A DNA stretch of 64,000 nucleotides from an uncultured Aquiluna sp. (GTDB taxonomy: Bacteria; Actinomycetota; Actinomycetes; Actinomycetales; Microbacteriaceae), in NCBI GenBank assembly GCA_913775595.1, contig CAJYLB010000001.1, forward strand, positions 806,001 to 870,000. The letters are read 5' to 3'. The first letter of the stretch is position 1. Each line of letters starts with the position of its first letter. The translations under genes and the position numbers were made by a program. Shown here in pieces: positions 3,872-35,359 of the stretch. Below the pieces are notes generated by a model, which was not told the origin of the DNA, ran no database searches, and saw nothing but the letters and a program-made list of their open reading frames with translations.

Positions 3872-4756
3872 ATGAAAGTACTCGTATCTGGTTCCAGTGG
3901 ACTCATTGGAACAGAGCTCATAAAGCAGCTTGAGGCCTCGGGCCACCAGCCAATTCGCCTCGTTAGGCGTGCTCCAAAGAATCCAAATGAATTGCAGTGG
4001 TCACCGGATCAGGGGGTTATACCCGCGGATGTAATGGAGCAGGTGGATGCCGTGGTGAATCTAAATGGCGCGACAACATCCAAGATTCCTTGGACTCCTG
4101 GGTATGTGAAGAAGCTCATCAGCTCCAGGATTGACTCGACGCGACTATTGGTGGAAACCATAAATAACTCCAAGAAGCCGCCGAAGGTCTTCGTCTCCGG
4201 CTCGGCCGAGGGCTTCTACGGAAATGGCGGGGACAAGGTTCTGACTGAGGACAGCCCCCTTGGCACCGGCTTCATGGCAGAGCTCTCAAACGCTTGGGAG
4301 CAAGAAGCCAAAAAAGCAAAAATCCGCACGGTCTTGCTCCGCACCACCCTTGCAATGAGCAAAAATGCAATCGCGCTCAAGCTAATCAAACTGATGATCA
4401 GCCTGCTATTCGTGAAATCCCTAGGCAGCGGCAAGCAGTGGTGGGCATGGATAACCGTCGAGGATCACGCCAGAGCAATCGTCCACCTCATCGAAAATGA
4501 AAAGGCAGAAGGCCCCTATAACCTCACCGCTCCTGAACCGGCCACCTGCGAAGAAATCTTCGCAGCCCTCGGCAAGGAGCTGAGGAGACCAAACCTAATT
4601 CGAATCCCCGCCTGGGCAATGCGGCTCACTGCAGGAGCCGCAGCCGATCAGATTCTTCTGACCTCACACAGGATGAGTGCGGAGAAACTGCTTGCGACAG
4701 GATTCGAGTTCAACCACCCAACTTTGAAGCAGGCGGCTAGCTACACCGTCCGCTAA
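3872..4756 (+). CDS. TIGR01777 family NAD-dependent epimerase/oxidoreductase
   Basis: VLVSGSSGLIG Rossmann motif, GSGKQWWAWI, GFEFNHPTL C-terminus. Confidence 0.9.
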   Translation: MKVLVSGSSGLIGTELIKQLEASGHQPIRLVRRAPKNPNELQWSPDQGVIPADVMEQVDAVVNLNGATTSKIPWTPGYVKKLISSRIDSTRLLVETINNSKKPPKVFVSGSAEGFYGNGGDKVLTEDSPLGTGFMAELSNAWEQEAKKAKIRTVLLRTTLAMSKNAIALKLIKLMISLLFVKSLGSGKQWWAWITVEDHARAIVHLIENEKAEGPYNLTAPEPATCEEIFAALGKELRRPNLIRIPAWAMRLTAGAAADQILLTSHRMSAEKLLATGFEFNHPTLKQAASYTVR

Positions 4757-5107
4757 CTACTTAGCGGCTGGCTTCTTAGCTGCTGGCTTTTTGGCTGCTG
4801 GCTTCTGAGCTGCGGGCTTGGCAGCAGTCTTCTTCGCTGGAGCTGCCTTGGTGGCAGTCTTGGCAGCTGGCTTCTTAGCTACTGGCTTCTTGGCTGCAGG
4901 CTTCTTGGCTGGTGCCGCTGGCTTTGCAGGTGAAGCGGCCTTCTTGGCCTTGCTAGCCTCGCTCGCTACCTTCTTAGCACCCTTCTCGACCTCGGTGAGT
5001 GCATCGTTTGCGAGGTCCTTTGCAGCAACCTTCACTTCAGCTGCAGACTGGCCAACAGCCTTAGCTGTGCGGCCGAAAAACTTTCTAATTGAATCGCCTA
5101 GACCCAT
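4757..5107 (-). CDS. Lys/Ala/Pro-rich histone-H1-like small basic protein
   Basis: repeated PAAKK/KPAAK units in C-terminal half. Confidence 0.7.
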   Translation of the reverse strand: MGLGDSIRKFFGRTAKAVGQSAAEVKVAAKDLANDALTEVEKGAKKVASEASKAKKAASPAKPAAPAKKPAAKKPVAKKPAAKTATKAAPAKKTAAKPAAQKPAAKKPAAKKPAAK

Positions 5108-5157: not shown

Positions 5158-5745
5158 CTAGATAGCCCTGCGGCGTGCCAGGATTTCGTCGATGTCCTTG
5201 CTCGCAAGCACTCGCCTTGGCTTTGAGATGTCAATTACCTCGGCAACCGGCTCCTGGCTAACAGGTGCTGATCTCTTGGCAAGTGGCTCAGGCAGTGGGT
5301 TTGGGCTCCACTCCCTGGTCTTTGCCCTGGCCCTTGCGGCATTTGACCTCACGTCTTGACGAGATTTGTGAAGCTTCTTTGCAATGCCCCTTGCCTGATT
5401 TGCTGCCGCCCTAGAAATGAACAGGCTCGACAGCGACAGGACACCCAGCAAGCCACCCAAGAACCAGAATGTTGAGTCGACAGCAGCCGAAACTGCCGCA
5501 GCAATTGAGCCAAGCAGAAATAAAGCGAAAAGTATCGAGAAGCCGCGCTGGGTGGCAAGGAGCCTGGCGAGCCTGTCATGCTCGGTCAGCACACGATTTC
5601 TATTAACTTCTCGAGCCTCTTTGCGCATCAGGCTGGTAGTTGCCTTGAGCTGAGCTCTCTGGGTGTAGCCGGGAACAAAAATGATGAGCCAAACGATTGC
5701 GGCTATTACGAGAGTGATACCACCTAAGCCAACCGGAGAACCCAT
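5158..5745 (-). CDS. membrane protein, GlpR/SepX-like position
   Basis: N-terminal TM, two central TMs, C-terminal 'EWSPNPLPEP' and 'DIDEILARRRA'; directly downstream of rimJ-like GNAT as in many actinobacteria. Confidence 0.6.
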   Translation of the reverse strand: MGSPVGLGGITLVIAAIVWLIIFVPGYTQRAQLKATTSLMRKEAREVNRNRVLTEHDRLARLLATQRGFSILFALFLLGSIAAAVSAAVDSTFWFLGGLLGVLSLSSLFISRAAANQARGIAKKLHKSRQDVRSNAARARAKTREWSPNPLPEPLAKRSAPVSQEPVAEVIDISKPRRVLASKDIDEILARRRAI

Positions 5746-15942: not shown

Positions 15943-16166
15943 AGCTTTTCGTCCGCCACGTGGAGCGCAAACCCGATCCTGAGCCGGTAAACGTAAATCA
16001 GAAACTAGTCGTTTTTGTCGGAACTGGCGTCTGGGTCGTCGTTCTTATCGTCCTGCTCGCGTTTTACCAGTCGCTTGCGGACGCGGGTCTTCTTTGGTGG
16101 CTCCACACCGCCATCGTTGGCATCCTGCTCGGCGGTGTCGCCTACCTCATGGTCAGAAACAACTGA
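15939..16166 (+). CDS. small membrane protein (DUF2530-like)
   Basis: PDPEP then two TM helices; GTG overlaps serC stop; usual neighbour of DUF3027. Confidence 0.65.
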   Translation: MKLFVRHVERKPDPEPVNVNQKLVVFVGTGVWVVVLIVLLAFYQSLADAGLLWWLHTAIVGILLGGVAYLMVRNN

Positions 16167-18795: not shown

Positions 18796-20424
18796 ATGTC
18801 TCCAGGCCCCCTAATTGTCCAGTCCGATAGGACCGTGCTGCTTGAGACGGACCATCCAAATGCCGCTGATGCCAGGCACGAGCTTGCGATATTTGCTGAG
18901 CTGGAACGGGCACCTGAGCACATTCACACCTACAGAATCACCAGGCTCGGCCTATGGAACGCCAGAGCCGCTGGCCACGATGCAGACTTCATAATCGATT
19001 CACTAACTCGCTGGTCAAAGTTTGAGCTTCCCCAGGGAGTAGTGAACGAGATCCGTTCGACCATTGAGCGCTTTGGCAAGCTTGTGATCACTCGCGATGA
19101 CGAGGGTCTGTTACTGGTAACTGATTCGCAGGCAGTGATGGCTGAGGTGAGCAGCAATAGAAAGGTCTCGGAGCTATTGACCGAGCGAGTGGAATCTGGC
19201 TTTCGGATTCAACCCTGGGCTAGGGGTCAGCTCAAGCAGCAGCTTCTAAAGCTTGGTTGGCCGGCCGAGGACACCGCCGGCTTCACCCCAGGCACGCCCT
19301 ATGAAATCAGTCTTGCTGAATCAGATTGGGAGCTTAGGGATTATCAAAAACAGGCGGTTGAGAAGTTCCAAGCTGGAGGCTCTGGCGTGGTGGTTCTGCC
19401 CTGTGGGGCGGGGAAGACTCTAGTTGGTGCTGCAACCATGGCCGAGCTCAAGAGAAACACTCTGATTCTTGTAACCAACACTGTCGCAGCAAGGCAGTGG
19501 CGTGACGAGCTACTCGCCAGAACCACCCTCACTGAGCAGGACATTGCTGAATACTCGGGGTCCTCTAAAGAGCTCGCACCGGTAACGATTGCTACCTACC
19601 AAATTCTCACCACGAAGCGAAAAGGGGAGTTTGCCCACCTCGTGCTCTTGGATGCCCGTGACTGGGGCCTCATTATCTATGACGAGGTGCACCTGCTCCC
19701 CGCACCTATTTTCAAGATGACCGCTGATCTTCAGGCAAGACGAAGGCTTGGTCTCACTGCCACTCTGGTTCGAGAGGATGGTAGGGAATCTGATGTCTTC
19801 TCACTCATTGGTCCGAAGCGCTTCGACGCTCCCTGGAAAGAAATTGAGGCCCAGGGTTACATAGCTCCGGCCGAGTGCTTTGAGGTTAGGGTCGAGCTGC
19901 CGGACGAGGAGCGAATGGAATATGCGATAGCCGACGGAGACAACCGCTTCCGAATTGCGGCAACCGCAAAGGCCAAGATTCCTCTCATGAAAAAAATCTT
20001 GGAAAAACACGCTGGAGAGCCAACGCTAATCATTGGTCAGTATCTCGACCAGATAGATGAGGTTGCAGAGCTGCTTTCCATCCCCAAGCTAACTGGTCAA
20101 ACACCGGTCGACGAGCGTGAGCAGCTCTACAAAGACTTCCGGACGGGAAAGCTCAGTGCGCTGATTGTGAGCAAGGTTGCCAACTTTTCCGTAGACCTGC
20201 CAGAGGCTTCAGTTGCTATACAAATCTCAGGAGCATTTGGCTCAAGGCAAGAGGAGGCGCAGCGGCTGGGGAGGCTCCTCAGGCCAAAGCAAGATGGCAG
20301 AACTGCACAGTTCTACACATTGATTTCCAGGGACACCCTGGAGCAGGACTTTGCGCAAAACCGCCAGCGTTTTCTCGCGGAGCAGGGCTACTCCTATGAG
20401 ATTCTGGACAGCAGCTCGATTTAG
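18796..20424 (+). CDS. DNA repair helicase XPB
   Basis: GVVVLPCGAGKT, DEVH, GLTAT, QRLGRLLRPK. Confidence 0.95.
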   Translation: MSPGPLIVQSDRTVLLETDHPNAADARHELAIFAELERAPEHIHTYRITRLGLWNARAAGHDADFIIDSLTRWSKFELPQGVVNEIRSTIERFGKLVITRDDEGLLLVTDSQAVMAEVSSNRKVSELLTERVESGFRIQPWARGQLKQQLLKLGWPAEDTAGFTPGTPYEISLAESDWELRDYQKQAVEKFQAGGSGVVVLPCGAGKTLVGAATMAELKRNTLILVTNTVAARQWRDELLARTTLTEQDIAEYSGSSKELAPVTIATYQILTTKRKGEFAHLVLLDARDWGLIIYDEVHLLPAPIFKMTADLQARRRLGLTATLVREDGRESDVFSLIGPKRFDAPWKEIEAQGYIAPAECFEVRVELPDEERMEYAIADGDNRFRIAATAKAKIPLMKKILEKHAGEPTLIIGQYLDQIDEVAELLSIPKLTGQTPVDEREQLYKDFRTGKLSALIVSKVANFSVDLPEASVAIQISGAFGSRQEEAQRLGRLLRPKQDGRTAQFYTLISRDTLEQDFAQNRQRFLAEQGYSYEILDSSSI

Positions 20425-22662: not shown

Positions 22663-24341
<1,679 letters not shown>

Positions 24342-24349
24342 CTAAAGTT

Positions 24350-24376
24350 TTAGCACTCTCGGGCTCAGAGTGCAAG
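24350..24376. promoter_or_regulatory. CIRCE element 2
   Basis: TTAGCACTC-N9-GAGTGCAAG. Confidence 0.88.
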
Positions 24377-24418
24377 CGGAAGAAAGGCGTGTTTTTGTGC
24401 GCCTATAGCCAAAGGGGC

Positions 24419-24768: not shown

Positions 24769-25170
24769 ATGAAGTACGAAGTATTCAAAACCGACGAGCA
24801 GTGGCGCCAGGAACTGAGTGACTTCGAATATCACGTGCTCCGAATGGCCGGCACGGAGCGCGCCTTTACCGGTGAGCTGCTCGAAGAAAAGCGCACCGGT
24901 AGCTACCACTGCCGCGGCTGCGATGCATTTTTATTTGAATCCGACACCAAGTTTGATTCGCACTGCGGCTGGCCAAGTTTTTATAAGCCGCAGGGAAATG
25001 AGGCTATCGAGTACATTGAGGACCGCTCACACGGCATGGTTCGCACAGAGGTGCGCTGCTCTAAGTGTGGCTCCCACCTAGGACACGTTTTCGATGATGC
25101 CCCACAGACCCCCACCGGAGATCGCTACTGCATCAACTCCGTGAGCATCACCTTCAAGCCGGCCAGCTAG
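24769..25170 (+). CDS. msrB: peptide-methionine (R)-S-oxide reductase
   Basis: GTERAFTG, two CxxC, GWPSF, RYCINS. Confidence 0.95.
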   Translation: MKYEVFKTDEQWRQELSDFEYHVLRMAGTERAFTGELLEEKRTGSYHCRGCDAFLFESDTKFDSHCGWPSFYKPQGNEAIEYIEDRSHGMVRTEVRCSKCGSHLGHVFDDAPQTPTGDRYCINSVSITFKPAS

Positions 25171-26357
25171 CGCCCGAGTCCTTTTCTCCAAGCCGTGAAG
25201 CTCCTTACAGTTCCAGCCTGCGGAATGGCAAGCCATGGATAGGGATGGACTTGTGCGAGCTTGCGGAACTTCCTAAAGGAAGGCACCGGTGCATAGGTAA
25301 CCGCAACCTCATGTGCCTCGGTGAACTCAACCGGGTCGCCGATGTACACCTTCAAGTCTCGTCGCCGGCTCAGATCCGCAAGTGTCTCTAGGTAGAAACC
25401 GATTCGACGAGAGCTCAGCTGGAGTTTTTTGAGCGCAGGCTCATTGAAGACGAATGCAACTGGCAGGTCAGGGTTTGCTGTCATGGCGGGGTCCGCGTCT
25501 CCAAGGGAGTCAATAGTCAAAAGCACCACCTCTGGCTTCCGAAGCTCGACGGGGGTAAGCGGGCCGGCAGTTCGCCTTGGATCTGGATCACGATTCAAAA
25601 GCGGATTGGCTTCTAGCTGCCTGGGAAAGGTCTCCTCAGGAAACTCTTGAATTGGACATGCGGTTCTGAGCTGGCATCCAGAGCAAAGACCAGGTGCTCG
25701 CTTTTCGACCTGCCATCGGGCAAAGCCGTATGGCTTTCCCGTTCCAGCCCCAACGGTCCACTGCCAACCGAGAAGATTTGCGGCTCTTGAGCCGTCAATT
25801 AGTTCACGGTGCATGCGCTCCTGGCCACTGAGCCAGCCCTGTCCGTTTCTCACGGTCCAGTGCGAAGCCAGCCACATTCTCGTTTGGTTTACCAGCCAGC
25901 CATCTGTTTCAAGCTCACTCACAACATGATCGACACATGCCATGTCGCGGTTCCAGCCATCCCCCTCAGACTTCCACTCCGCCTCGAAGCGGAGATTTTG
26001 AAAGAGCTCGGTCCCTACCCGGGCGTATAGGTGGCGAGCGTATTCCTGCCAGTAGAGCTCGTCCCTGAACTTCTCGCGGTCCTTATAAGGGGCCTTAGAA
26101 ACACGGTCATAGGCCTCAGCCAGAGTTATCAGGTTGTGGCGGATGTATGGCGAGAGGACAGTTGCACCCCTTGCAGCCCTGGGAAGAACTTCTGACCTAT
26201 TCGCTGCGTAGCCGGAAATATCGAGACTCTGTAGAGCCTCATTTGCAGCGGTTTGACCACCGCGAATACTGCTTAGACCAAGCTCTCCTGAGTACAGTCC
26301 AGAGAATTCGGACTTGATTGTTTGCTGAATGTCTTCCGAGATCGCAATTTCGCGCAT
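25167..26357 (-). CDS. photolyase/cryptochrome-family protein, FAD-binding domain first
   Basis: LSPYIRH, GWLVNQTRMWLAS, ELIDGSRAANLLGWQWTVG. Confidence 0.85.
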   Translation of the reverse strand: MREIAISEDIQQTIKSEFSGLYSGELGLSSIRGGQTAANEALQSLDISGYAANRSEVLPRAARGATVLSPYIRHNLITLAEAYDRVSKAPYKDREKFRDELYWQEYARHLYARVGTELFQNLRFEAEWKSEGDGWNRDMACVDHVVSELETDGWLVNQTRMWLASHWTVRNGQGWLSGQERMHRELIDGSRAANLLGWQWTVGAGTGKPYGFARWQVEKRAPGLCSGCQLRTACPIQEFPEETFPRQLEANPLLNRDPDPRRTAGPLTPVELRKPEVVLLTIDSLGDADPAMTANPDLPVAFVFNEPALKKLQLSSRRIGFYLETLADLSRRRDLKVYIGDPVEFTEAHEVAVTYAPVPSFRKFRKLAQVHPYPWLAIPQAGTVRSFTAWRKGLGR

Positions 26358-26366
26358 TGCTTGCTC

Positions 26367-26444
26367 AACCAAAGTCAGCGGTGAGGTGTTCCTAGAGAGC
26401 CGACTACGGGACTCGAACCCGTAACCCCCGCTTTACAAGAGCGG
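26367..26444. repeat. att direct repeat copy 1 (3' part of tRNA-Thr plus 31 nt downstream)
   Basis: 78 bp identical to 34389-34466. Confidence 0.95.
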
Positions 26445-26476
26445 GCCTTCATGCCCCAAGTCGCCTGACCCCTACC

Positions 26477-26596
26477 ACTGCAATCTTGGTATATCCCAGT
26501 ATTTACGGGGGTTTCTGCGAGCGCCGCAGCTAAGTCTCGTTGTTTAGTTTTGCTCAAGATTAATCGCCGCTAGGGACAATTTGCTACCTATTTGCT
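26477..26596. repeat. island arm region copy A
   Basis: gapless alignment to 30321-30440, ends ATTTGCTACCTATTTGCT. Confidence 0.85.
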
Positions 26597-26654
26597 ACCA
26601 GGTAGGTGGACCTAATCGTCAATTTGAATTAGGTTCCTAGTTGAAGGGGGGGTC

Positions 26655-28124
26655 GTGAGACGATTAATCGGATTTCTGGCATCACTAGTTTTGGTAGTTA
26701 CGTTCGCAACGCCTGCCCAGTCCGCTGGGGCAAAGTACACCGTCTACCAGAAAACCCTCGCCAGCTTCTCTTCAACCGCAACCGCCCTCACATCCCAGCA
26801 AAAGGCTCAGGTCAAGGCTGCAGTTGATGCAAACCCAACTGCTGAAAAATTCATCTGCACGGGTATCAGGTATTTCTCACAACCAATGAGCGTGAACATC
26901 AAGGTTAGAAAGCGTGCGAAGGCAGCTTGTGAGTATGCAAAGCAGCTAAACCCTGAGCTTTCTACCTGGTATCAAAACAAGCCGACTCAGGCTAGAAGTT
27001 ATGCGGGCAAGGTGTTATTGACTATAAAGAGCCCTTTGGATTTTCAGGAGCCTGAAGTGGATCCAATCGAAATACCCCCTCTGGTTTGGACCCAGGGTGC
27101 AGAGTATGGGTGGTCAAACCTAGTTGCGGGAGATATGGCATGGTTTACGATCGCACCTTTGCCTGCTGGATGGGAAATTGTTAGCACAGAATTCTTGGCC
27201 TGCGACACGCAGTCAATAGACGATACTTGTCTTTCACTCACATCGAATTTCTACGATGGGGCACTTCTGCCGATGGGCCTCATTGGTATGAAGCCTGTAG
27301 CCAGATTGAAGTTGAGATATGCGGGTCTGGAATATTCAGATAGATATTGGACCCACACGGGTATCAAGATACAAAACGCACCATTATGGGGTCGACTTCC
27401 GAAGCTTGTGGGAAGCAGGATTGTTGGCCAGCAAGTATCAATGGACGTTGATTTCTCGCCCCAAGATTACGAAGTATCCAAGGAATCGTCGATTTGGGCC
27501 TGTTTTGCAGGTTCAGCTGAGGCCGCTATTTCCGAATTTGCTACGCTCTTGACCTCTGGTCAGTGCGAATGGTTGGGAAACTTAGTGAGCCAGCCCGTAA
27601 CTATTGTTGAGTCTGCGGTGGGGAAGTATTTGGTTGGGAATGTGAGGCTCAAGAGCAACTTCACGGGCCTCGAATACGATCAAACTACTTGGATGGCGTG
27701 GTCAGTAATTCCATCCCAAATTAGTAGCCCCGAACCTCCGCCCAGCGCTGGGCCAACGCCAACACCTGCGCCCTCGCCTACGCCTACGCCTACGCCTACG
27801 CCTACGCCCGAGCCTGTGCTGCGATATCAAACCGTACAATTTGCATCAGGCTCAGGGTCTTGCAACAGCGTCGGGGACAACTCGGAGTTCGTCTCGGGCG
27901 CTGCAGTAATCCCCGCCCCAGACTGGCGAGGTTTAGCAACTTGGGTTTATTCGTCAGATTTTCGGCAAAGCGGTAATGGAGGTTACTCGGTGAACGGATC
28001 TAAGCAGTTCTGGGCACGAGAGACCTTCTTCTCATCGTGGAGAAATGTGACTTATGACTGGTATTTTGTCAATTCATTGGCTTGGAAAGCGTCTGTTGAA
28101 ATCACTTGTCGATGGTACGAGTAG
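26655..28124 (+). CDS. secreted surface protein (signal peptide, KFICTG domain, Ig-like segments, PT linker)
   Basis: MRRLIGFLASLVLVVTFATPAQSA signal; Pro/Thr linker; G-rich RBS. Confidence 0.8.
   Translation: MRRLIGFLASLVLVVTFATPAQSAGAKYTVYQKTLASFSSTATALTSQQKAQVKAAVDANPTAEKFICTGIRYFSQPMSVNIKVRKRAKAACEYAKQLNPELSTWYQNKPTQARSYAGKVLLTIKSPLDFQEPEVDPIEIPPLVWTQGAEYGWSNLVAGDMAWFTIAPLPAGWEIVSTEFLACDTQSIDDTCLSLTSNFYDGALLPMGLIGMKPVARLKLRYAGLEYSDRYWTHTGIKIQNAPLWGRLPKLVGSRIVGQQVSMDVDFSPQDYEVSKESSIWACFAGSAEAAISEFATLLTSGQCEWLGNLVSQPVTIVESAVGKYLVGNVRLKSNFTGLEYDQTTWMAWSVIPSQISSPEPPPSAGPTPTPAPSPTPTPTPTPTPEPVLRYQTVQFASGSGSCNSVGDNSEFVSGAAVIPAPDWRGLATWVYSSDFRQSGNGGYSVNGSKQFWARETFFSSWRNVTYDWYFVNSLAWKASVEITCRWYE
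27777..27806 (+). repeat. (CCTACG)5 tandem repeat encoding PT linker
   Basis: five exact hexamer copies. Confidence 0.9.
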
Positions 28125-28416
28125 AACCGTTAATTGACTAAGCGAACTTCATTATCGTCTGCCATGCAGAGGTGCGAGTGGGTCAGTTGTCTTTCAAGGG
28201 TGGCTTGAAACCTCAATTCGCCAATTGCTGCAAAATCTTTTGGCGCCTGTATTAGCCAGGACATGTGTGGGCGCCGAAGCTAAGCCCAACTTCGCGATTG
28301 AGATTGGTTGATGGCTGATCGCCTCGAGTGACAATCTCTCCCTAATGTCTAGTAAGCGTGGTTTGCCTGGCTCGTCGGAAAGGTCTAGTCTGATGAAGAG
28401 GTCCTGGGGGTGCAAG

Positions 28417-30315
28417 ATGAGAAGGCTCGCGTCGATTTTGGCGTCACTAGTAATCGTCCTTGGATTTGCCGCACCTTCGAGCGCAGAACTGTATAACGTT
28501 CAAAGCGTCTACGACAACAATGATTTCGGCTACATTTACTCAGGCGCCGACATCGAATATTTCTCAGTTTTTGAGTCAACTGACTTCCCTGGGGACCTTT
28601 TCGTGGTCACATACTTCAATGGTTGGGTTGGAAGCTCACGCGGCATGGGCAGTGACTACATGTTTGTCTACTTCGACATCGATGGCGACGGGACTGAAGA
28701 TTACTATCTGATTTCGCCAGATGCCTACCTGCCTGCAGGTGGCGAGGATGCTCTAATGTATAGGGCGTCGGACTATTCAATAGTTGCTGGTTGCGAGGCA
28801 ATAGCGTTTGTATCGGGCGGTTTCTCGAGCTACGACGACAATTACTACGGATTTTACTTCCAAAAAGACTGTCTACCGTTTAGCTCTTCAACAAACATTC
28901 AAGTTCTCTCAAACTATCTCGGCGATTTCGACTACACCCAGTATGGAACTTTCGAAACAGGGGCTTCACAGCAGCTAGCAGCAAACTTTGACAAGCCCTC
29001 AGCAAAACCACTCTTGGCCTTCAATACTGTCTCACCAGCAAAGGAGCCTGCTGACCTGGTCGCTCTTTCCCCCCAACTTCTTAAGTCTGTCGTTCAGGTT
29101 TACTGTGCAAACGGAGTTGGCTCGGGTTGGGTGGCGGACGTCTCAATGCCAGCCTCCGCTGAAAATTCGGGGTATAAGTCCGCGATAATTACAAATCATC
29201 ATGTGGTGGAAGATTGTCTCAGGAGCGGCGCTGTTTCCGTTGTGGACAGTGAAGGCACGACACACGCTGGCGTGGTTTTCGCAAGTGACTCACAAAATGA
29301 CCTTGCAGGCGTATTCATTCAAAATCCGCTGCCGAGCCTAAGGTGGCAGGGCGAAGAGCCTGCCCAAGGTTGGTGGGCTGGGGTGCTTGGATCACCCTCA
29401 CAAATCAGCGGATATCTAACAACTGGGATTATTGGGCTCGTCGAGAGATCCTCGGGGTTAATTAGTGTGACTGCCCCTATACGGCCTGGAAACTCGGGGG
29501 GTCCAGTATTCGACAGGGAGGGACGCGTTGTTGGAGTGGCAACGGCCTACCTGCCTGGTTACGAAAACATAAATGTCGCTGGCGGTGTGCACCTTCTCTG
29601 CGAGGAAATAATCTCCTGCTCGAGTTCCAACATGGTTTGGAGCAAGTCCCTGCAAGACGCCCCAGCTGAGGAAGCTTCCGTCGATGCGCCTCCAGCGGAG
29701 CTTGGAGACGAAACAGTTGATGGCGGAGTCCTTGTGCAGAGGGCGGGTAGCCAGGTTTTCATCACAAGTGCTGACCTCCAAGGTGATTTTGAGATTTATG
29801 AGGATGGGGAGCTAATTGACAGCTTTACCTTTGATGGTGTAGCCCAGGCATACATCGTCGAACAACGTGTGACTGGAGGCATACAAATCCGTCAGATTAT
29901 CAACGGGGTGGCCTCGTTGGTAGCTTATGACTTCACGAAGACTTTGCTCTGGTTTCAAAATGTAAACCTCGGCTCATTCTCTGAGACCGACCTCGGCTCG
30001 AGTGCCCGAGACAAGGTTTCTAACCTCGTCAACCACCGTTACTCAGACTCAGGCAATTGGAAACAGAGAGATTCTGAAGTTACAAAATTTATTTGCACTG
30101 GCATCTATCGAGAAGGCGGTTCTGCAGCCGAGAAGTTAAGCGCCCGAAAGAAAGCGAAGCTTGCCTGTGAGAGCGCAAAGGTTTTGGACAACGACCCAAA
30201 TTCGCAAGTGTCTTTCTTTTACCAAACTAAGCCGACTAAAGCTGCGTCCTACGTAGGGAAGGTTCTCGTCACCGTTAAAGGCATAGAGCCTTTTGTGGCA
30301 TCAAGAATCAACTAG
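28417..30315 (+). CDS. secreted trypsin-like (S1) serine protease with C-terminal KFICTG domain
   Basis: signal peptide; triad ITNHHVV / NDLAG / PGNSGGP. Confidence 0.85.
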   Translation: MRRLASILASLVIVLGFAAPSSAELYNVQSVYDNNDFGYIYSGADIEYFSVFESTDFPGDLFVVTYFNGWVGSSRGMGSDYMFVYFDIDGDGTEDYYLISPDAYLPAGGEDALMYRASDYSIVAGCEAIAFVSGGFSSYDDNYYGFYFQKDCLPFSSSTNIQVLSNYLGDFDYTQYGTFETGASQQLAANFDKPSAKPLLAFNTVSPAKEPADLVALSPQLLKSVVQVYCANGVGSGWVADVSMPASAENSGYKSAIITNHHVVEDCLRSGAVSVVDSEGTTHAGVVFASDSQNDLAGVFIQNPLPSLRWQGEEPAQGWWAGVLGSPSQISGYLTTGIIGLVERSSGLISVTAPIRPGNSGGPVFDREGRVVGVATAYLPGYENINVAGGVHLLCEEIISCSSSNMVWSKSLQDAPAEEASVDAPPAELGDETVDGGVLVQRAGSQVFITSADLQGDFEIYEDGELIDSFTFDGVAQAYIVEQRVTGGIQIRQIINGVASLVAYDFTKTLLWFQNVNLGSFSETDLGSSARDKVSNLVNHRYSDSGNWKQRDSEVTKFICTGIYREGGSAAEKLSARKKAKLACESAKVLDNDPNSQVSFFYQTKPTKAASYVGKVLVTVKGIEPFVASRIN

Positions 30316-30320
30316 CGACT

Positions 30321-30440
30321 ACTGCAATTCCTGCAAGTCTCTGCAATTACGGAAGAGCCTGAAAGCACCTCAGCTGAGTCTCGTTGTTCTGTTTTGCTAA
30401 AGATATTTCGTTCCTAGGGACCATTTGCTACCTATTTGCT
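30321..30440. repeat. island arm region copy B (internal)
   Basis: 89/120 identical to 26477-26596 by hand count, no gaps. Confidence 0.85.
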
Positions 30441-30534
30441 GACCAATTGTTACCTCCCGAGTGCTTTCGCGGGTTGCGTTGCGTGGGACAGTCACACTAA
30501 TCTCAAAGTTAGTTAGAGCTATTGGGGGGCCGAC

Positions 30535-31521
30535 ATGTCGCAACCGTTAATTAATCCGAATCAAAAGCAGCCCAAGGAAAAGAAGGCTGATTCTCGACAG
30601 TGGTATCAAAAGAAACGCTGGATGCTTCCAATTGGTTTTTTTGTCTTTGCGTCGCTGATGTCTGCAATCACGGGTGGTGGCGACTCCGACTCTGCTTCGA
30701 CAGAATCTGCTTCTCCCAGTGAAACTGCCTCCGAAACAGCTTCACCCACTGAAGAGGCAAGCGAAGAAGTGGAAATTGAAATTGTTTCGTTGGTCGTGCC
30801 TGACCTCGTGGGACAAAACGCTGCAGACGCTTCGGAAGAACTAGAAGCGATGGGCTTTCTCGAGGTAAACGTTCAGGATGCCACCCGAGAGGAGCGCATT
30901 CCGTTTTTGTACAGCAACTGGTTCGTCTGTGAGATGAGACCTGGCAGCGGCCAAACGCTAGATTCCGATAAAACAATTGTTCTCTTGTCTGTAAAGAATT
31001 CTGAGAGCTGCCCTGTGCCAGGGTCTTCAACGGAGGCTTCGCAGGGCTCGGATAGTTCTGCTGGCGGGAATTCATCGGCAGAAATCTCTGCAGGCACATA
31101 CGTTGTCGGGACTGAAGTCGAGCCAGGTTTGTACCGCTCCTCAAGGTATTGGAGCCGCCTAGATGCAAACCAGGAAATAATCGACAATGATTTGGTCTGG
31201 GGAAATGGCTGGTCCCTGGTGCAGATTCAGGATTCGGACAAATTTATTGAATTCTCTGGTGTTGCTTATGCTCTGGAAGACATGCCTCTTCTTGACCCAA
31301 TTGCCGAGGGCTTCACGGAAGGCACCTATCTTGTTGGAGTTGACATCCAGCCAGGCACATACCGTGTCAACGCTGAAGGTGATTCGATGGCTTATGGCTC
31401 GAGACTCGCGTGCGACCGAGACATTCTGGACAATGACCTCAACTCGGGCAGCGTTATCTTGACTGTGAAGTCAAGTGACTGCATGTTTGAATTCCGAGGG
31501 ATTTTGGAAAAACTCGACTAA
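30535..31521 (+). CDS. membrane-anchored PASTA-domain protein with two GTYxVGxD/ExxPG repeats
   Basis: WYQKKRW then TM; VPDLVGQNAADA..LEAMGF; GTYVVGTEVEPGLY and GTYLVGVDIQPGTY. Confidence 0.7.
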   Translation: MSQPLINPNQKQPKEKKADSRQWYQKKRWMLPIGFFVFASLMSAITGGGDSDSASTESASPSETASETASPTEEASEEVEIEIVSLVVPDLVGQNAADASEELEAMGFLEVNVQDATREERIPFLYSNWFVCEMRPGSGQTLDSDKTIVLLSVKNSESCPVPGSSTEASQGSDSSAGGNSSAEISAGTYVVGTEVEPGLYRSSRYWSRLDANQEIIDNDLVWGNGWSLVQIQDSDKFIEFSGVAYALEDMPLLDPIAEGFTEGTYLVGVDIQPGTYRVNAEGDSMAYGSRLACDRDILDNDLNSGSVILTVKSSDCMFEFRGILEKLD

Positions 31522-31536
31522 GAACACCTTTGGCCA

Positions 31537-32556
31537 ATGTTCATTCCACAGAGCAAGCTGTACAAACCAAACACCGCTGCGATTCCTAGCATTTTAGAGA
31601 ATGGCGAGGTTGCACTCGCCATGTTCCCAGTGGGACTAAATAACAAGGTGCTTACTAACAGGCGACTGCTCTTCATGGACGCACTTGATTCAAAAGTCAA
31701 GGAGTTTATCTCGCTTGAAAATGTTGAGAGTTTCAGCTTCGGAAGTTTCGCTGGCGCACCTCGAATAGACGCTGTGATGAAAGATGGAACAACGATAAAG
31801 ATTGGCTCGGTCGACCAAAAGTGGCTTCCCGATATCCAGCGAATACTGGATTCAGTCCTAGCTGGCGACCTTGACGAAGGTGTCGGACGAACCGCAGAGG
31901 ATAATGCCGCGAGCGCTGAGGCTAGCGAAACATCGAACTCCGACGGTCCCTTACCTCCAATGGTGCGAACGAACGCCCAAAAGGCGTTTCCGAAATGGCT
32001 ACAAAAGTCAATCCATGAACACAAGCGGTCAGATGAAGAGTTACTCATGTTGATAACAGAGCCCTACACAAACCACCAAGGTGCTCTGCTAGTTTTTGAA
32101 GACCGCTGCATGATCGTTAAGGGTGGATTCATCGGCGGATTTATGGCTGGCTCACTCGGTGGGGAGCGCGCCTCAACCTTCTATTTCAATCAAATAACTG
32201 GCATTGAATACAACAGCGGTTTTGTCAACGGTGTCCTAGAGATTCTCACTCCGTCCTACCAGGGAACCGCAAATAAGGACTTCTGGCGAGGAACCACCAA
32301 GTCGCGAAATGCCGATAGTAATGACCCATGGACCCTGAGTAATTGCCTACCGCTAACAAAAGATGGCTACAACTCAGCCAGAGACCTGATTGATGAATTG
32401 AAGCGAATGATTGCTAATTTCGGTAGGCCGAGTCAAAACTCCCAAGCAGGGTCATTCGACTTGGCGACTGAAATTGCAAAACTTTCGGACTTGCACGACA
32501 AAGGCATACTCAGTGAGGCTGAGTTTTCTCAGGCAAAATCCAAGCTTCTTGGCTGA
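31537..32556 (+). CDS. bacterial PH-like domain protein with C-terminal SHOCT domain
   Basis: VLTNRRLLF; EIAKLSDLHDKGILSEAEFSQAKSKLL. Confidence 0.75.
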   Translation: MFIPQSKLYKPNTAAIPSILENGEVALAMFPVGLNNKVLTNRRLLFMDALDSKVKEFISLENVESFSFGSFAGAPRIDAVMKDGTTIKIGSVDQKWLPDIQRILDSVLAGDLDEGVGRTAEDNAASAEASETSNSDGPLPPMVRTNAQKAFPKWLQKSIHEHKRSDEELLMLITEPYTNHQGALLVFEDRCMIVKGGFIGGFMAGSLGGERASTFYFNQITGIEYNSGFVNGVLEILTPSYQGTANKDFWRGTTKSRNADSNDPWTLSNCLPLTKDGYNSARDLIDELKRMIANFGRPSQNSQAGSFDLATEIAKLSDLHDKGILSEAEFSQAKSKLLG

Positions 32557-33038
32557 GGCAGCATTTGTTCCCAATCAGACTTGGCGTAGAGCCCAAAATC
32601 TGAGACCTCAAGGCTAAACATGTCAGTCTTTTTTCACTACATATCTACCACCTAGCCTCTTGGCGGTTCTGCTCCTCTTCCCTAGTCCCTATCGATGAAA
32701 TAGTAAAACGTCTATAACACTCACTGATAGGGGGAGATCCCCCTAAGACCCCCCAAATCAAAGGGCTAGTTGCCCTCACAAGGCCCTGCCAAATTTACCA
32801 ACGTCCCCCCCCAGCAATCCTGCAAAACTCTCTTGCCGTCTAGGCCGTGCTGAGAGCCTATGAGGGGTGCGTCTCGCCCGCTCTACCAAGGACTAAATAG
32901 CCCAATATCTCGAAGCCCTCAGATTCCTGTGTGCGGCCCGACAGTGGTGTGCTGATTTGTGGGCTACTGCCTCACTATTACCTACTAACTGCGCCTGACA
33001 CCAGCCCAACAGCCCCGTATTTGCGGGCAAACTGATAC

Positions 33039-34178
33039 CTACCCCTTTCCACTTTCAAGCTCACTGTTATTAGAAGCAGCCTGCAAACTTCCATGAAATT
33101 GGCCCCTGTGAGCTCCACTCTTATCAGATACCAAGCTTCTGAGGTCATCTACCTGGGGGTGGACATAGGTCGCCAGCGTATAGGCAGGTGACGAGTGCCC
33201 CAGCAACATCTGAACGGCCTTCGGATTAGCGCCACATGCCATCAAATGAGTTGCAACTGAGTGTCTTGCCGAATGCAAAGGCAAATAGCGAACACCGCTT
33301 GCTGCAACAAGTGCTCGCCAGCGCCTTTGGTCAACTGTGGCATCAATCGGCATGTGACCAGCCTCGGCATATAACCATCCGCAGGTTTTGCTCATCTGAC
33401 TAAGGAGCTGTATGACTTGCGAATCAATTGGCAGTTTGCGAGTGGAGTGCTTGGACTTGGTTGGCAGCGAAACTACCCCTTTTCCTGGCAATGAGTTGAC
33501 TGTGCGGGAAATCCTCAGGGTTTTTTCAAATAGGTCAAAATCCTCGAATCTAAGCCCTAAAACCTCCCCCTGACGCATTCCATATCTGAGCGCAAATAAC
33601 CACCTCAGATGCTCTCCTGGGGCCTTATAGGCCGAATTCTGCAGCAGTATCTGCATCTCCTGATAGCTATAGACCTCAGGGGGTTTTGGGGAGTACTTTG
33701 GCGGCTTGATTTTGGACATTGGATTGTGGGCAATTACGCCCTGCGCATGTGCCAATTCGAATGCGCTCACCAGTAGCGAATGCACCTTCCGAACCGTGCC
33801 TGAAGATAAACCCAGCTCCTTTTGCAGATAGCTGTATAGGTCCTGAATCTGAAAAGCCGCAATGGCATCGAGTTTCTGATTCCCAAGAAGCGGAACTAGA
33901 TAGTTATTAATGTGCGACTGAAAGCCCCAGGAGGTTGTTGGGCTTACTTCTAGCTGTTTCTTATCCAGCCAATAACCAAGCCAGCTTGAAAACTCAGGGG
34001 TTTCCTTGCTGGGTAGGTTCAAAAACCCCTGCTGCTGCCTGGCATGAATCTCGGCGAGCAATATGTGTGCCTGTTTGTAGCTTTCTGCGGTCTTGGTTCT
34101 GGTTCTGCCGAAAGAATCCAGGTATTGAATGCGAAATTTGCCCCTGTAGGGAAATACGCTTGCGCTTTTTCTTGGCAT
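33039..34178 (-). CDS. int: tyrosine recombinase/phage integrase
   Basis: YGMRQGEV (R), PTKSK (K), LHSARHS (HxxR), LLGHS (H), TLATYVH (Y). Confidence 0.95.
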   Translation of the reverse strand: MPRKSASVFPYRGKFRIQYLDSFGRTRTKTAESYKQAHILLAEIHARQQQGFLNLPSKETPEFSSWLGYWLDKKQLEVSPTTSWGFQSHINNYLVPLLGNQKLDAIAAFQIQDLYSYLQKELGLSSGTVRKVHSLLVSAFELAHAQGVIAHNPMSKIKPPKYSPKPPEVYSYQEMQILLQNSAYKAPGEHLRWLFALRYGMRQGEVLGLRFEDFDLFEKTLRISRTVNSLPGKGVVSLPTKSKHSTRKLPIDSQVIQLLSQMSKTCGWLYAEAGHMPIDATVDQRRWRALVAASGVRYLPLHSARHSVATHLMACGANPKAVQMLLGHSSPAYTLATYVHPQVDDLRSLVSDKSGAHRGQFHGSLQAASNNSELESGKG

Positions 34179-34388
34179 CTTCGTCCTCTCATTTCGAGAG
34201 ACTTAGCTGCTGGCAGAAGGCAATAAGGGCAAATGTGGCCAAGGCTTATAGGGCTTCTAGGGCTAACCCTGAAACGCCCCTGCAACCTGGCTTATGGGGA
34301 GCCTTGCTAGCGCCGAGCTACCAATTTGCTACCAATTAGCCTTTTTGCCTGCCGCTTTGCCGCATCGCAATTTACGTGCATGTCGGGG

Positions 34389-34466
34389 AACCAAAGTCAG
34401 CGGTGAGGTGTTCCTAGAGAGCCGACTACGGGACTCGAACCCGTAACCCCCGCTTTACAAGAGCGG
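34389..34466. repeat. att direct repeat copy 2
   Basis: identical to 26367-26444. Confidence 0.95.
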
Positions 34467-34492
34467 TGCGCTACCAATTGCGCCAAGTCGGC
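34420..34492 (-). tRNA. tRNA-Thr(TGT)
   Basis: GCCGACT/AGTCGGC acceptor stem, CCGCT-CTTGTAA-AGCGG anticodon arm, GTTCGAG T-loop. Confidence 0.96.
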
Positions 34493-34513
34493 TGGCGGCA
34501 TAAAGCCTAGCGG

Positions 34514-35359
34514 CTACTCTGCAGTAGCCACCTGAACGAACTGGGCAAAGCGCTCAGCCGAGACCAGCTCCTCGCCAGTAGCCCAGGTGTACTGAAGGCC
34601 GTTGACGAGAATGGTTGGTGTTCCAGTGACGCTAACGCCATCCTGTGGATTGTTCAGAACCTCTTGAGTGTGCTGAGCAACATAGTCTCCAAAGCTCTTT
34701 GCCTGGATGCAGCCCTTGATCTCCTCTGAGCCGGCTCCTGCCTCCTCGGCAAAGGCAAAGATTGCATTGTCATCGTGACCGTCACCACCCTCGCTTGACT
34801 GATTGAGCATCATGATTTCGTGGAAATCATAGAAAGCATCTGGCTCAAAGTTGGCGACACAGAATGCGGCATTAGCAACCCTTGAGGAGTACTGGTTGAG
34901 AGATGCTCTGTCGAGAAAGGAAATGGGCCTAATCTCAACAGTTGCTGCACCGGTGTCAACCCAAGAGCGGATCTGAGCTGAGTTCGGAACATCAAATGCC
35001 TGACAGATTGGGCACTGGTAGTCAACGTAGACAACAATCTCGGGCACATCCCCAGCTGCATCTGCGGTTGGGGTCTTGGTGTCAGTGAAAGCTTGCAGTC
35101 CAACACCAACCTTCAGGCCACCAAGCTCGGTTAGGTTGTTAGGAACCTCATCGACAACCGGGGCATCCGCACGGTTGGCGGCTTCGATTGCAATAACACC
35201 CGCAACACCTCCAACGATGCCGAGCGCGACAAGTACCACCGAAAGCTGAATGATGAGCTTGTTGCGCTTTTCCTTCTTGGCGCTTTTCTCCCTCAGTTCT
35301 CGGGCTTTGTTTCTTGCGGCCTCGCGCTGCTCGGACCTGGTTGGCTTGGGATTTGACAA
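34514..35359 (-). CDS. DsbA family membrane-anchored thioredoxin-fold protein
   Basis: YVDYQCPIC, GTPTILVNG. Confidence 0.9.
   Translation of the reverse strand: MSNPKPTRSEQREAARNKARELREKSAKKEKRNKLIIQLSVVLVALGIVGGVAGVIAIEAANRADAPVVDEVPNNLTELGGLKVGVGLQAFTDTKTPTADAAGDVPEIVVYVDYQCPICQAFDVPNSAQIRSWVDTGAATVEIRPISFLDRASLNQYSSRVANAAFCVANFEPDAFYDFHEIMMLNQSSEGGDGHDDNAIFAFAEEAGAGSEEIKGCIQAKSFGDYVAQHTQEVLNNPQDGVSVTGTPTILVNGLQYTWATGEELVSAERFAQFVQVATAE

Follow-up and report, generated by a model that had tools for sequence, protein, structure and literature searches.

Within a 64,000-nt stretch of the genome of an uncultured Aquiluna sp. of the family Microbacteriaceae (positions 806,001 to 870,000 of contig CAJYLB010000001.1; hereafter the window, with its first letter as position 1), the region from 26367 to 34466 is an 8-kb integrative island in a tRNA-Thr(TGT) gene, with a single tyrosine integrase. 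A non-coding unit of 120 bp at the integrase-distal end of this island (unit 1) is found a second time inside the island (unit 2). With a probability of approx. 0.7, we consider that the unit is an attachment (att) arm of the lambda type, and that its inner copy is the leftover of two related islands that were fused in tandem. A first-pass annotation of the same stretch, made from its letters, had instead proposed an integron-like cassette array, i.e., an undescribed system in which modules were added serially at the tRNA end.

Integrative island and repeated unit

An exact direct repeat of 78 nt marks the two ends of the island (26367-26444 and 34389-34466) and covers the 3' 48 nt of tRNA-Thr as well as 30 nt downstream; a looser repeat of 133 nt at 86% identity extends over 26341-26467 and 34364-34494. 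The 8,022 bp between the repeat copies contain the integrase gene (int) and four plus-strand cargo open reading frames (ORFs), designated genes A to D (Table 1). Three genomes of the same genus (G213, G216 and G208) present the empty site, i.e., a photolyase-like gene, tRNA-Thr and a DsbA-like gene are contiguous with no island, and the flanking proteins of G213 are 96.7% and 99.6% identical to those of the window. We regard the island and its borders as firm because of the direct repeat, the presence of both an intact tRNA gene and a pseudo-tRNA, and the empty sites in three genomes. The ORF to the left of the pseudo-tRNA (25167-26372) was considered as a second integrase and ruled out; it matches a photolyase FAD-binding domain and is chromosomal, which leaves the island integrase single. 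Pfam-level annotation of the island ORFs recognised no conjugation or mobilization gene. The contigs of four runs contained no excision joint for the island or for the segment 26445-30320; as these contigs break at the 78-nt repeat, this result is uninformative either way.

Ungapped comparison of 26477-26596 with 30321-30440 showed 89 of 120 positions to be identical, with 30 identities over the first 50 positions and 59 over the last, gene-proximal 70. Among all offsets on both strands of the window, the runner-up for unit 1 reached 52/120 (mean 29.8, standard deviation 4.75), and a repeat search of the window recovered the two units as a pair of 123 nt at 74% identity. By BLASTN, unit 1 was found at two places only in its own genome (1,245,344 bp, single contig), the second at 83% identity over approx. 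81 nt (E = 4e-17). Unit 1 precedes the co-oriented genes A and B and unit 2 precedes the co-oriented genes C and D, beginning 5 nt past the stop codon of gene B (30313-30315). No tRNA-like sequence was detected beside unit 2, as ARAGORN and Rfam reported only 26397-26465 and 34419-34492; by the same programs, the core is absent from the neighborhood of unit 2 (30250-30450). These results agree with the first-pass annotation, which had reported an 89/120 ungapped match that is best in the distal part, a two-gene module behind each copy, and an inner copy that starts 5 nt past a stop codon and lacks the tRNA core.

Attachment arms of the island family

Against 200 other genomes of the bacterial family, unit 1 yielded no BLASTN match at E ≤ 0.001; its sequence has diverged too far for such a search, and in relatives the arm could be recovered by motifs and a profile only. 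Relatives of the integrase were G111 (58% identity), found among the 200 genomes of the family, G111 and G220 among 61 other genomes of the genus (2/61), 17 metagenome loci with 51 to 73% identity, and two distant loci. We refer to the window, G111, G220 and the 17 metagenome loci as the 20 close relatives; six of these are complete islands with the far end present (the window, G111, G220, L039, L040 and L048), and L038 is the seventh in which the distal arm is seen. A search of the genome contigs with the integrase alone as query yielded one irrelevant locus (28% identity). The distant integrase of L053 (34% identity) lies in an island of approx. 10.7 kb at tRNA-Ala(CGC), which is marked by a 69-nt repeat (5309-5377 and 16008-16076), contains long internal tandem coding repeats and has a GGTACC-type pair upstream of int.

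Read in the orientation of the tRNA, a GGTAGCA-N3/4-GGTAGC pair is located upstream of int in all 20 close relatives; the pair is exact in 17 and carries one mismatch in L036, L038 and L052. A second pair, in the same orientation, is located approx. 110 to 200 nt before the distal repeat in each of the six complete islands. Within a pair, the GGTAGCA sites are spaced 10 to 11 nt, and the paired-site pattern is found at exactly two places in the 1.245-Mb genome and at exactly two in G111, in both cases only in the island arms. Two further blocks, AACTAAACA and GCGGCGCTCGC, are found behind the distal pair at fixed distances in unit 1 of the window and in L038, G111, G220 and L039; L040 shows one change in each of the two blocks and L048 has kept only AACTAAACA. 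Because the paired sites and the two blocks recur at the core-adjacent place across the family, comparison of these sequences indicates that the 120-bp unit is the integrase-distal attachment arm of the island family. The first-pass annotation had described an arm/promoter unit, and the arm part of this description is borne out by the recurrence of the unit next to the core. In lambda nomenclature, the two arms are named P and P', which by analogy correspond here to the integrase-distal and the integrase-proximal arm, respectively.

The structure model of the integrase (mean predicted local distance difference test score, pLDDT, of 77) comprises three domains: one of three strands and a helix at the N-terminus, followed by the core-binding and the catalytic domain. 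The modelled N-terminus contains strands at residues 7-11, 14-20 and 26-31 and a helix at residues 34-50, and the mean pLDDT of 10-residue blocks ranges from 65 to 87 over residues 1-50. Foldseek aligned 343 to 363 columns of the model to full-length lambda integrase chains and also matched the Tn1549 integrase. We infer from the model that the integrase is probably of the lambda type (heterobivalent). For lambda-like actinobacteriophage integrases, a passage of PMC10865867 describes an N-terminal domain of such a kind together with pairs of putative arm-type sites that flank the core of the phage attachment site (attP). Since the integrase model is lambda-like and this passage reports such pairs, the GGTAGCA pairs are, by analogy, putative arm-type integrase-binding sites. 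The likeness to a lambda-type attP thus includes the three-domain integrase model, the direct-repeat site pairs that flank a core in a tRNA gene, and the presence of one arm per end after integration. Compared to lambda-type and actinobacteriophage attP sites, on the other hand, the GGTAGCA sequence and the two additional blocks of the distal arm are features of this island family only, and binding is putative. A search of viral contigs for a 17-mer of the paired site gave six stretches; a rough estimate suggests that a comparable number is possible by chance, and nothing was drawn from them. Four of the six represent one prophage type, with the 17-mer near a tRNA fragment and an integrase approx. 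23% identical to that of the window.

One alternative is that the unit is chiefly a promoter or operator module, duplicated so that A-B and C-D share a driver or regulator, with its position at the island end being incidental. Such a module would account for the location of both copies upstream of co-oriented two-gene modules and for the better conservation of the gene-proximal 70 nt. Moreover, an ORF starts 56 to 110 nt inward of the arm in six of the seven terminal arms and at both inner arms, and a promoter module predicts the same geometry; the promoter part of the arm/promoter unit in the first-pass annotation thus retains some support from the geometry. We nevertheless consider this alternative unlikely, as the spacing between the conserved blocks and the att core is maintained throughout the family regardless of the cargo gene, as the paired sites are also found in the integrase-proximal arm of every close relative and nowhere else in the two complete genomes, and as the arm-adjacent ORF of G111 points toward the arm. 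A consensus sigma-70-type scan, which is weak for such organisms, found no promoter in or next to either unit; a promoter and terminator scan of 26300-34600 gave one promoter-like site, which is away from both units, and no conserved RNA fold was found in the units. With the unit taken as an attachment arm, too, the arm region may contain the promoter of the first cargo gene or lie next to it, in which case the inner copy may still serve C and D; arm-adjacent proteins often start with a signal-peptide-like stretch.

Degradation of the inner copy

Of the two GGTAGCA sites paired in unit 2 (30427-30444), one has been preserved and the other is changed to GGTCAGCA. Blocks 2 and 3 of unit 2, which read AACAGAACA and GAGGTGCTTTC, respectively, are both mutated. 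A profile built from seven intact arms (R1) gave 56 to 78 bits for its seven training arms, 46 bits for a truncated non-training arm at the contig end of L038, and 21.6 bits for unit 2. Integrase-proximal arms, which have only the pair in common with the profile, scored 14 to 23 bits, a range into which unit 2 falls. No further arm copies were found by R1 in the 283,550 bases of the window and related loci. Because all three blocks are altered, the R1 score is low and there is no core, unit 2 appears to be a decaying relic of an attachment arm. In L043, a near-perfect pair located deep in the contig (9029-9044) was left uncounted, as there is no core in the following 450 nt, blocks 2 and 3 are absent and no profile match is found at E ≤ 1; this pair may be another core-less arm relic.

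Inner arms in related islands and proposed history

The closest relative, L038 (a metagenome contig with an integrase 71% identical to that of the window), has the same order as the window, i.e., int, inner cargo, arm, B homologue and a second arm at the contig end. Nucleotide identity between L038 and the window is 80% over the last 600 nt of B and 69% over int. The inner arm of L038 is intact; behind it lie a pseudo-5' tRNA half and the stretch of the core that belongs to the anticodon stem, the latter ending 3 nt away from the B homologue's stop codon. The two islands are not alike in their inner cargo, with genes C and D in the window as compared to EcoRI-like methylase, GmrSD/HNH, Mrr-like and HIRAN proteins in L038. 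A contig of 2,190 nt (X5 record 18) contains the core and unit 1 (26415-26602), then 1,515 other letters and then 29852-30338, which corresponds to the 3' end of B and the first 18 nt of unit 2; by its sequence, this contig appears to show a third variant, which lacks gene A but keeps the order, and in which the terminal arm runs into the core. Of the seven islands in which the distal arm is seen, two (the window and L038) were thus observed to have an inner arm, and these two belong to the sublineage whose integrases are at least 71% identical; no inner arm was found in G111, G220, L039, L040 or L048, and never was there more than one in any source. Run X3, which resembles the source more than the other runs do, was observed to contain minor contigs with variants of unit 1 and the integrase (window 26555-26569, 30404 and 33303-33621, with 22 differences in 319 nt), and therefore a second, related island variant coexists in that sample.

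We propose that two related islands came to lie side by side at tRNA-Thr through site-specific integration. A deletion that ended shortly after the stop codon of B would then have eliminated the proximal arm and integrase of the outer element as well as the inner core, wholly or for the most part. The resulting order would be arm - A - B - relic arm - C - D - int, in a composite with a single integrase and two outer cores that would be mobile only as one piece. Because the relic has no core, it could not recombine, and the outer module would be locked to the composite; in the window, the relic arm would now be decaying. We infer the order of these events, as we do the binding of the integrase to GGTAGCA and a residual promoter role of the relic for C and D. 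The inner junction of L038 resembles what a former att junction would look like after deletion of the remaining core, and the junction directly past the B stop codon, which is shared among the sequences compared, favours a single origin. The serial addition at the tRNA end that the first-pass annotation had suggested is thus supported, in that tandem addition of a second, related island at this tRNA best explains the inner copy, in line with the core remnant at the inner arm of L038; its integron-like manner is not supported.

Decay of one element, followed by tandem site-specific accretion of another, is described as a route for integrative elements in section 2.3 of PMC5704250. As in the tandem accretion and the cis-mobilizable elements (CIMEs) treated in that source, related modules are placed in tandem at a tRNA 3' end with one integrase, att-derived sequence lies between them and an integrase-less module is kept; here, the arm relic between B and C separates two element-derived modules. 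The definition of a CIME demands functional attL and attR sites, whereas the inner core has been lost in the window and mostly lost in L038, and the island, as compared to CIMEs, is only 8 kb in size.

Several observations weigh against a tandem origin of an attachment-arm relic. The window island contains no second integrase, no relic of a proximal arm and no core fragment, so that both the tandem stage and the deletion had to be reconstructed. Toward its genes, unit 2 has been kept better (59/70) than in the rest (30/50), which could reflect retained function rather than neutral decay. With respect to the integrase, Pfam gave no match for residues 1-71. The terminal arm copy of L038 is exactly 77 nt long and lies at the contig end, as is typical of an assembler k-mer overlap. 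Over these shared 77 nt, identity is 73% between units 1 and 2, 75% between unit 1 and L038 and 58% between unit 2 and L038, while the two L038 copies are identical to each other; a single ancestral event therefore needs gene conversion in L038, and otherwise the accretion was repeated or L038 underwent a separate recent event. The case for an att origin of unit 2 depends on its homology to unit 1 and on relatives from metagenome contigs; X5 record 18 is independent with regard to the order, yet it is a contig only.

The same observations could also be explained by an ordinary rearrangement, within one island or between related ones, that was not site-specific (e.g., unequal homologous exchange between two islands with the arm in common, or segmental duplication) and that involved no tandem integration stage. 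The duplication in the window comprises the arm only, with no core or integrase relic, the L038 copies are identical over at least 77 nt, as would be the case after recent duplication or conversion, and the island is a mosaic, as seen from the different identities to L038 over B and int. On the other hand, the inner copy of L038 has a pseudo-5' tRNA half and the anticodon-stem portion of the core, which look like the remnant of an att junction and which a simple arm duplication does not require, and the junction is located directly past the B stop codon in the window, L038 and X5 record 18. We thus judge such a rearrangement to be quite improbable as the source of the inner copy, and prefer tandem fusion of two related islands.

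Comparison with integrons

Like integrons, the island has a tyrosine recombinase as well as a non-coding unit that is repeated in front of cargo genes of one orientation. If the island were an integron-like cassette system, the integrase would add unit-plus-cargo modules serially, with each unit a working site. Consistent with this, two unit-headed modules are present in the window, the outer module varies (A and B in the window, the B homologue alone in L038 and X5 record 18), and the inner arm of L038 is intact with part of the core. However, no island has more than one inner arm, the five islands listed above have none, and the inner unit of the window has degraded blocks and no core. The integrase scored 38.8 bits (cut-off 265) and 23.3 bits (cut-off 435) with the NCBIfam models for integron integrases, i.e., it is not of the IntI type. 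Moreover, the units are located on the integrase-distal side rather than at an attI next to int, and the repeat is a putative distal att arm that is also common to islands with a single copy. No attC-like fold was found in the units, for which the consensus fold has -7 kcal/mol and no covariation support. A joint of unit 1 to gene C or a module circle was absent from the contigs of the four runs, a weak negative given that these are contigs only. Overall, a cassette system of this kind appears highly improbable. The first-pass annotation had predicted variable numbers of modules next to tRNA-Thr integrases, and inner arms numbering only zero or one per island, together with an integrase that is not IntI-type and the lack of an attC fold, speak against its integron-like array and undescribed system.

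Similarity of arm sites to the target tRNA

The first site of the integrase-proximal pair in the window, AATTGGTAGC (34317-34343), shares an identical stretch of 10 nt with the D-arm of the target tRNA-Thr (34467-34486). Identity of 10 to 12 nt between arm site and D-arm was also observed in L037, L039, L042-L046 and L048-L051, with 12 nt in L048, and random windows of the same locus reached the match length in 0 to 9 of 2000 cases. According to these matches, tRNA fragments may be the origin of the arm sites; alternatively, the sites may mimic the target or the integrase may also read the D-arm. Identity of arm sites to the target D-arm is not mentioned in the passages of PMC10865867 and PMC5704250 used here.

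A further idea, which we regard as very doubtful, is that an inner arm still bound by the integrase, as the intact one of L038 might be, acts as a secondary synapsis or recombination site. If this were true, arm-bounded modules (such as the protease module, with or without A) would be exchanged or captured between related islands, i.e., cargo turnover would be modular and arm-guided. In a linked idea, the arm-binding domain of the integrase would also read the tRNA D-arm, given the 10 to 12 identical bases of arm site and D-arm, and an arm-type site would then be present in the chromosomal target.

Cargo genes and other features

B homologues adjoin arms in L038 (50% amino acid identity) and L040 (33%). 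Residues 65-125 of A are 49% identical to the C-terminal region of the L038 B homologue, and therefore A and B share a domain; at the nucleotide level, 26961-26993 resembles 30211-30243. Gene A is absent from L038 and X5 record 18. B homologues in 12 of the 61 other genomes of the genus (33 to 46% identity, most 36 to 38%) had no paired site and no tRNA-Thr 3' fragment within up to approx. 1.5 kb on either side, and to judge from these flanks they are apparently not island-linked. The approx. 340 nt past the int stop codon contain no convincing ORF and a G5/C5 hairpin; a similar hairpin is found in the distal arm of G111 (L034, approx. 19141-19175).

Table 1. Coordinates of the island features in the window
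Feature	Position	Strand	Evidence
Island end; att core copy, displaced tRNA-Thr 3' part	26367..26444	.	Repeat of 34389-34466
Pseudo-tRNA-Thr; true 3' part and degenerate, island-supplied 5' part	26397..26465	-	ARAGORN, 69 nt; Rfam tRNA, 31.7 bits
Unit 1, putative integrase-distal attachment arm (P arm by lambda analogy)	26477..26609	-	Motifs; 64.9 bits with arm profile R1, of which it is itself a training sequence
Unit 1 block GCGGCGCTCGC	26517-26527	-	Motif
Unit 1 block AACTAAACA	26541-26549	-	Motif
Unit 1 paired GGTAGCA sites	26583-26599	-	Motif
Gene A, 489 amino acids; signal-peptide-like N-terminus, no Pfam family	26655..28124	+	
Gene B, 656 amino acids; trypsin-like serine peptidase domain, stop abuts inner arm	28345..30315	+	Pfam
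Unit 2, probable degraded arm relic without core	30321..30449	-	Block comparison; 21.6 bits with profile R1
Gene C, 328 amino acids; PASTA and Rv1352/Rv1906c-type domains	30535..31521	+	
Gene D, 339 amino acids; SHOCT domain and weak match to bacterial PH domain	31537..32556	+	
Conserved non-coding stretch downstream of int	32696..33038	-	Common to L038 (1470-1812) and L052
Tyrosine integrase (int), 379 amino acids; only one in the island	33039..34178	-	Pfam Phage_integrase, E = 1.9e-21, and SAM-like domains
Paired GGTAGCA sites, putative integrase-proximal arm (P' arm)	34317..34333	-	Motif
Island end; att core copy in and just past the intact tRNA gene	34389..34466	.	Exact repeat
tRNA-Thr(TGT), intact; integration target	34419..34492	-	ARAGORN; Rfam, 71.5 bits

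Elsewhere in the window, two inverted repeats of the form TTAGCACTC-N9-GAGTGCTAA are located at 24303-24382, just upstream of a chaperonin (Cpn60) gene (22663-24321); we take these ordinary elements to be matches to the CIRCE (controlling inverted repeat of chaperone expression) heat-shock operator. Eight overlapping copies of a 15-nt periodic repeat at 4745-4926 probably represent a low-complexity coding repeat.

Conclusions

The architecture and mode of origin of the island are textbook for tRNA islands, and the second copy of the arm probably reflects a known route of island growth, not a new cassette system. A limited literature search found no account of this island family, and its integrase family and arm sites seem to be undescribed. 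For annotators, the inner repeat would thus be a scar rather than a new mobile system, and the arm profile may serve to locate the borders of related islands; the match between arm site and D-arm provides a small, testable lead on target recognition. The data define the putative attachment-site anatomy, i.e., the core, both arms, the paired sites and the two distal blocks, of an uncharacterised tRNA-Thr integrase family that carries small, flexible islands in genome-streamlined aquatic bacteria. If the proposed history holds, the window presents a small and clean example of how islands grow by tandem accretion and lock the added module in place through loss of the inner core.

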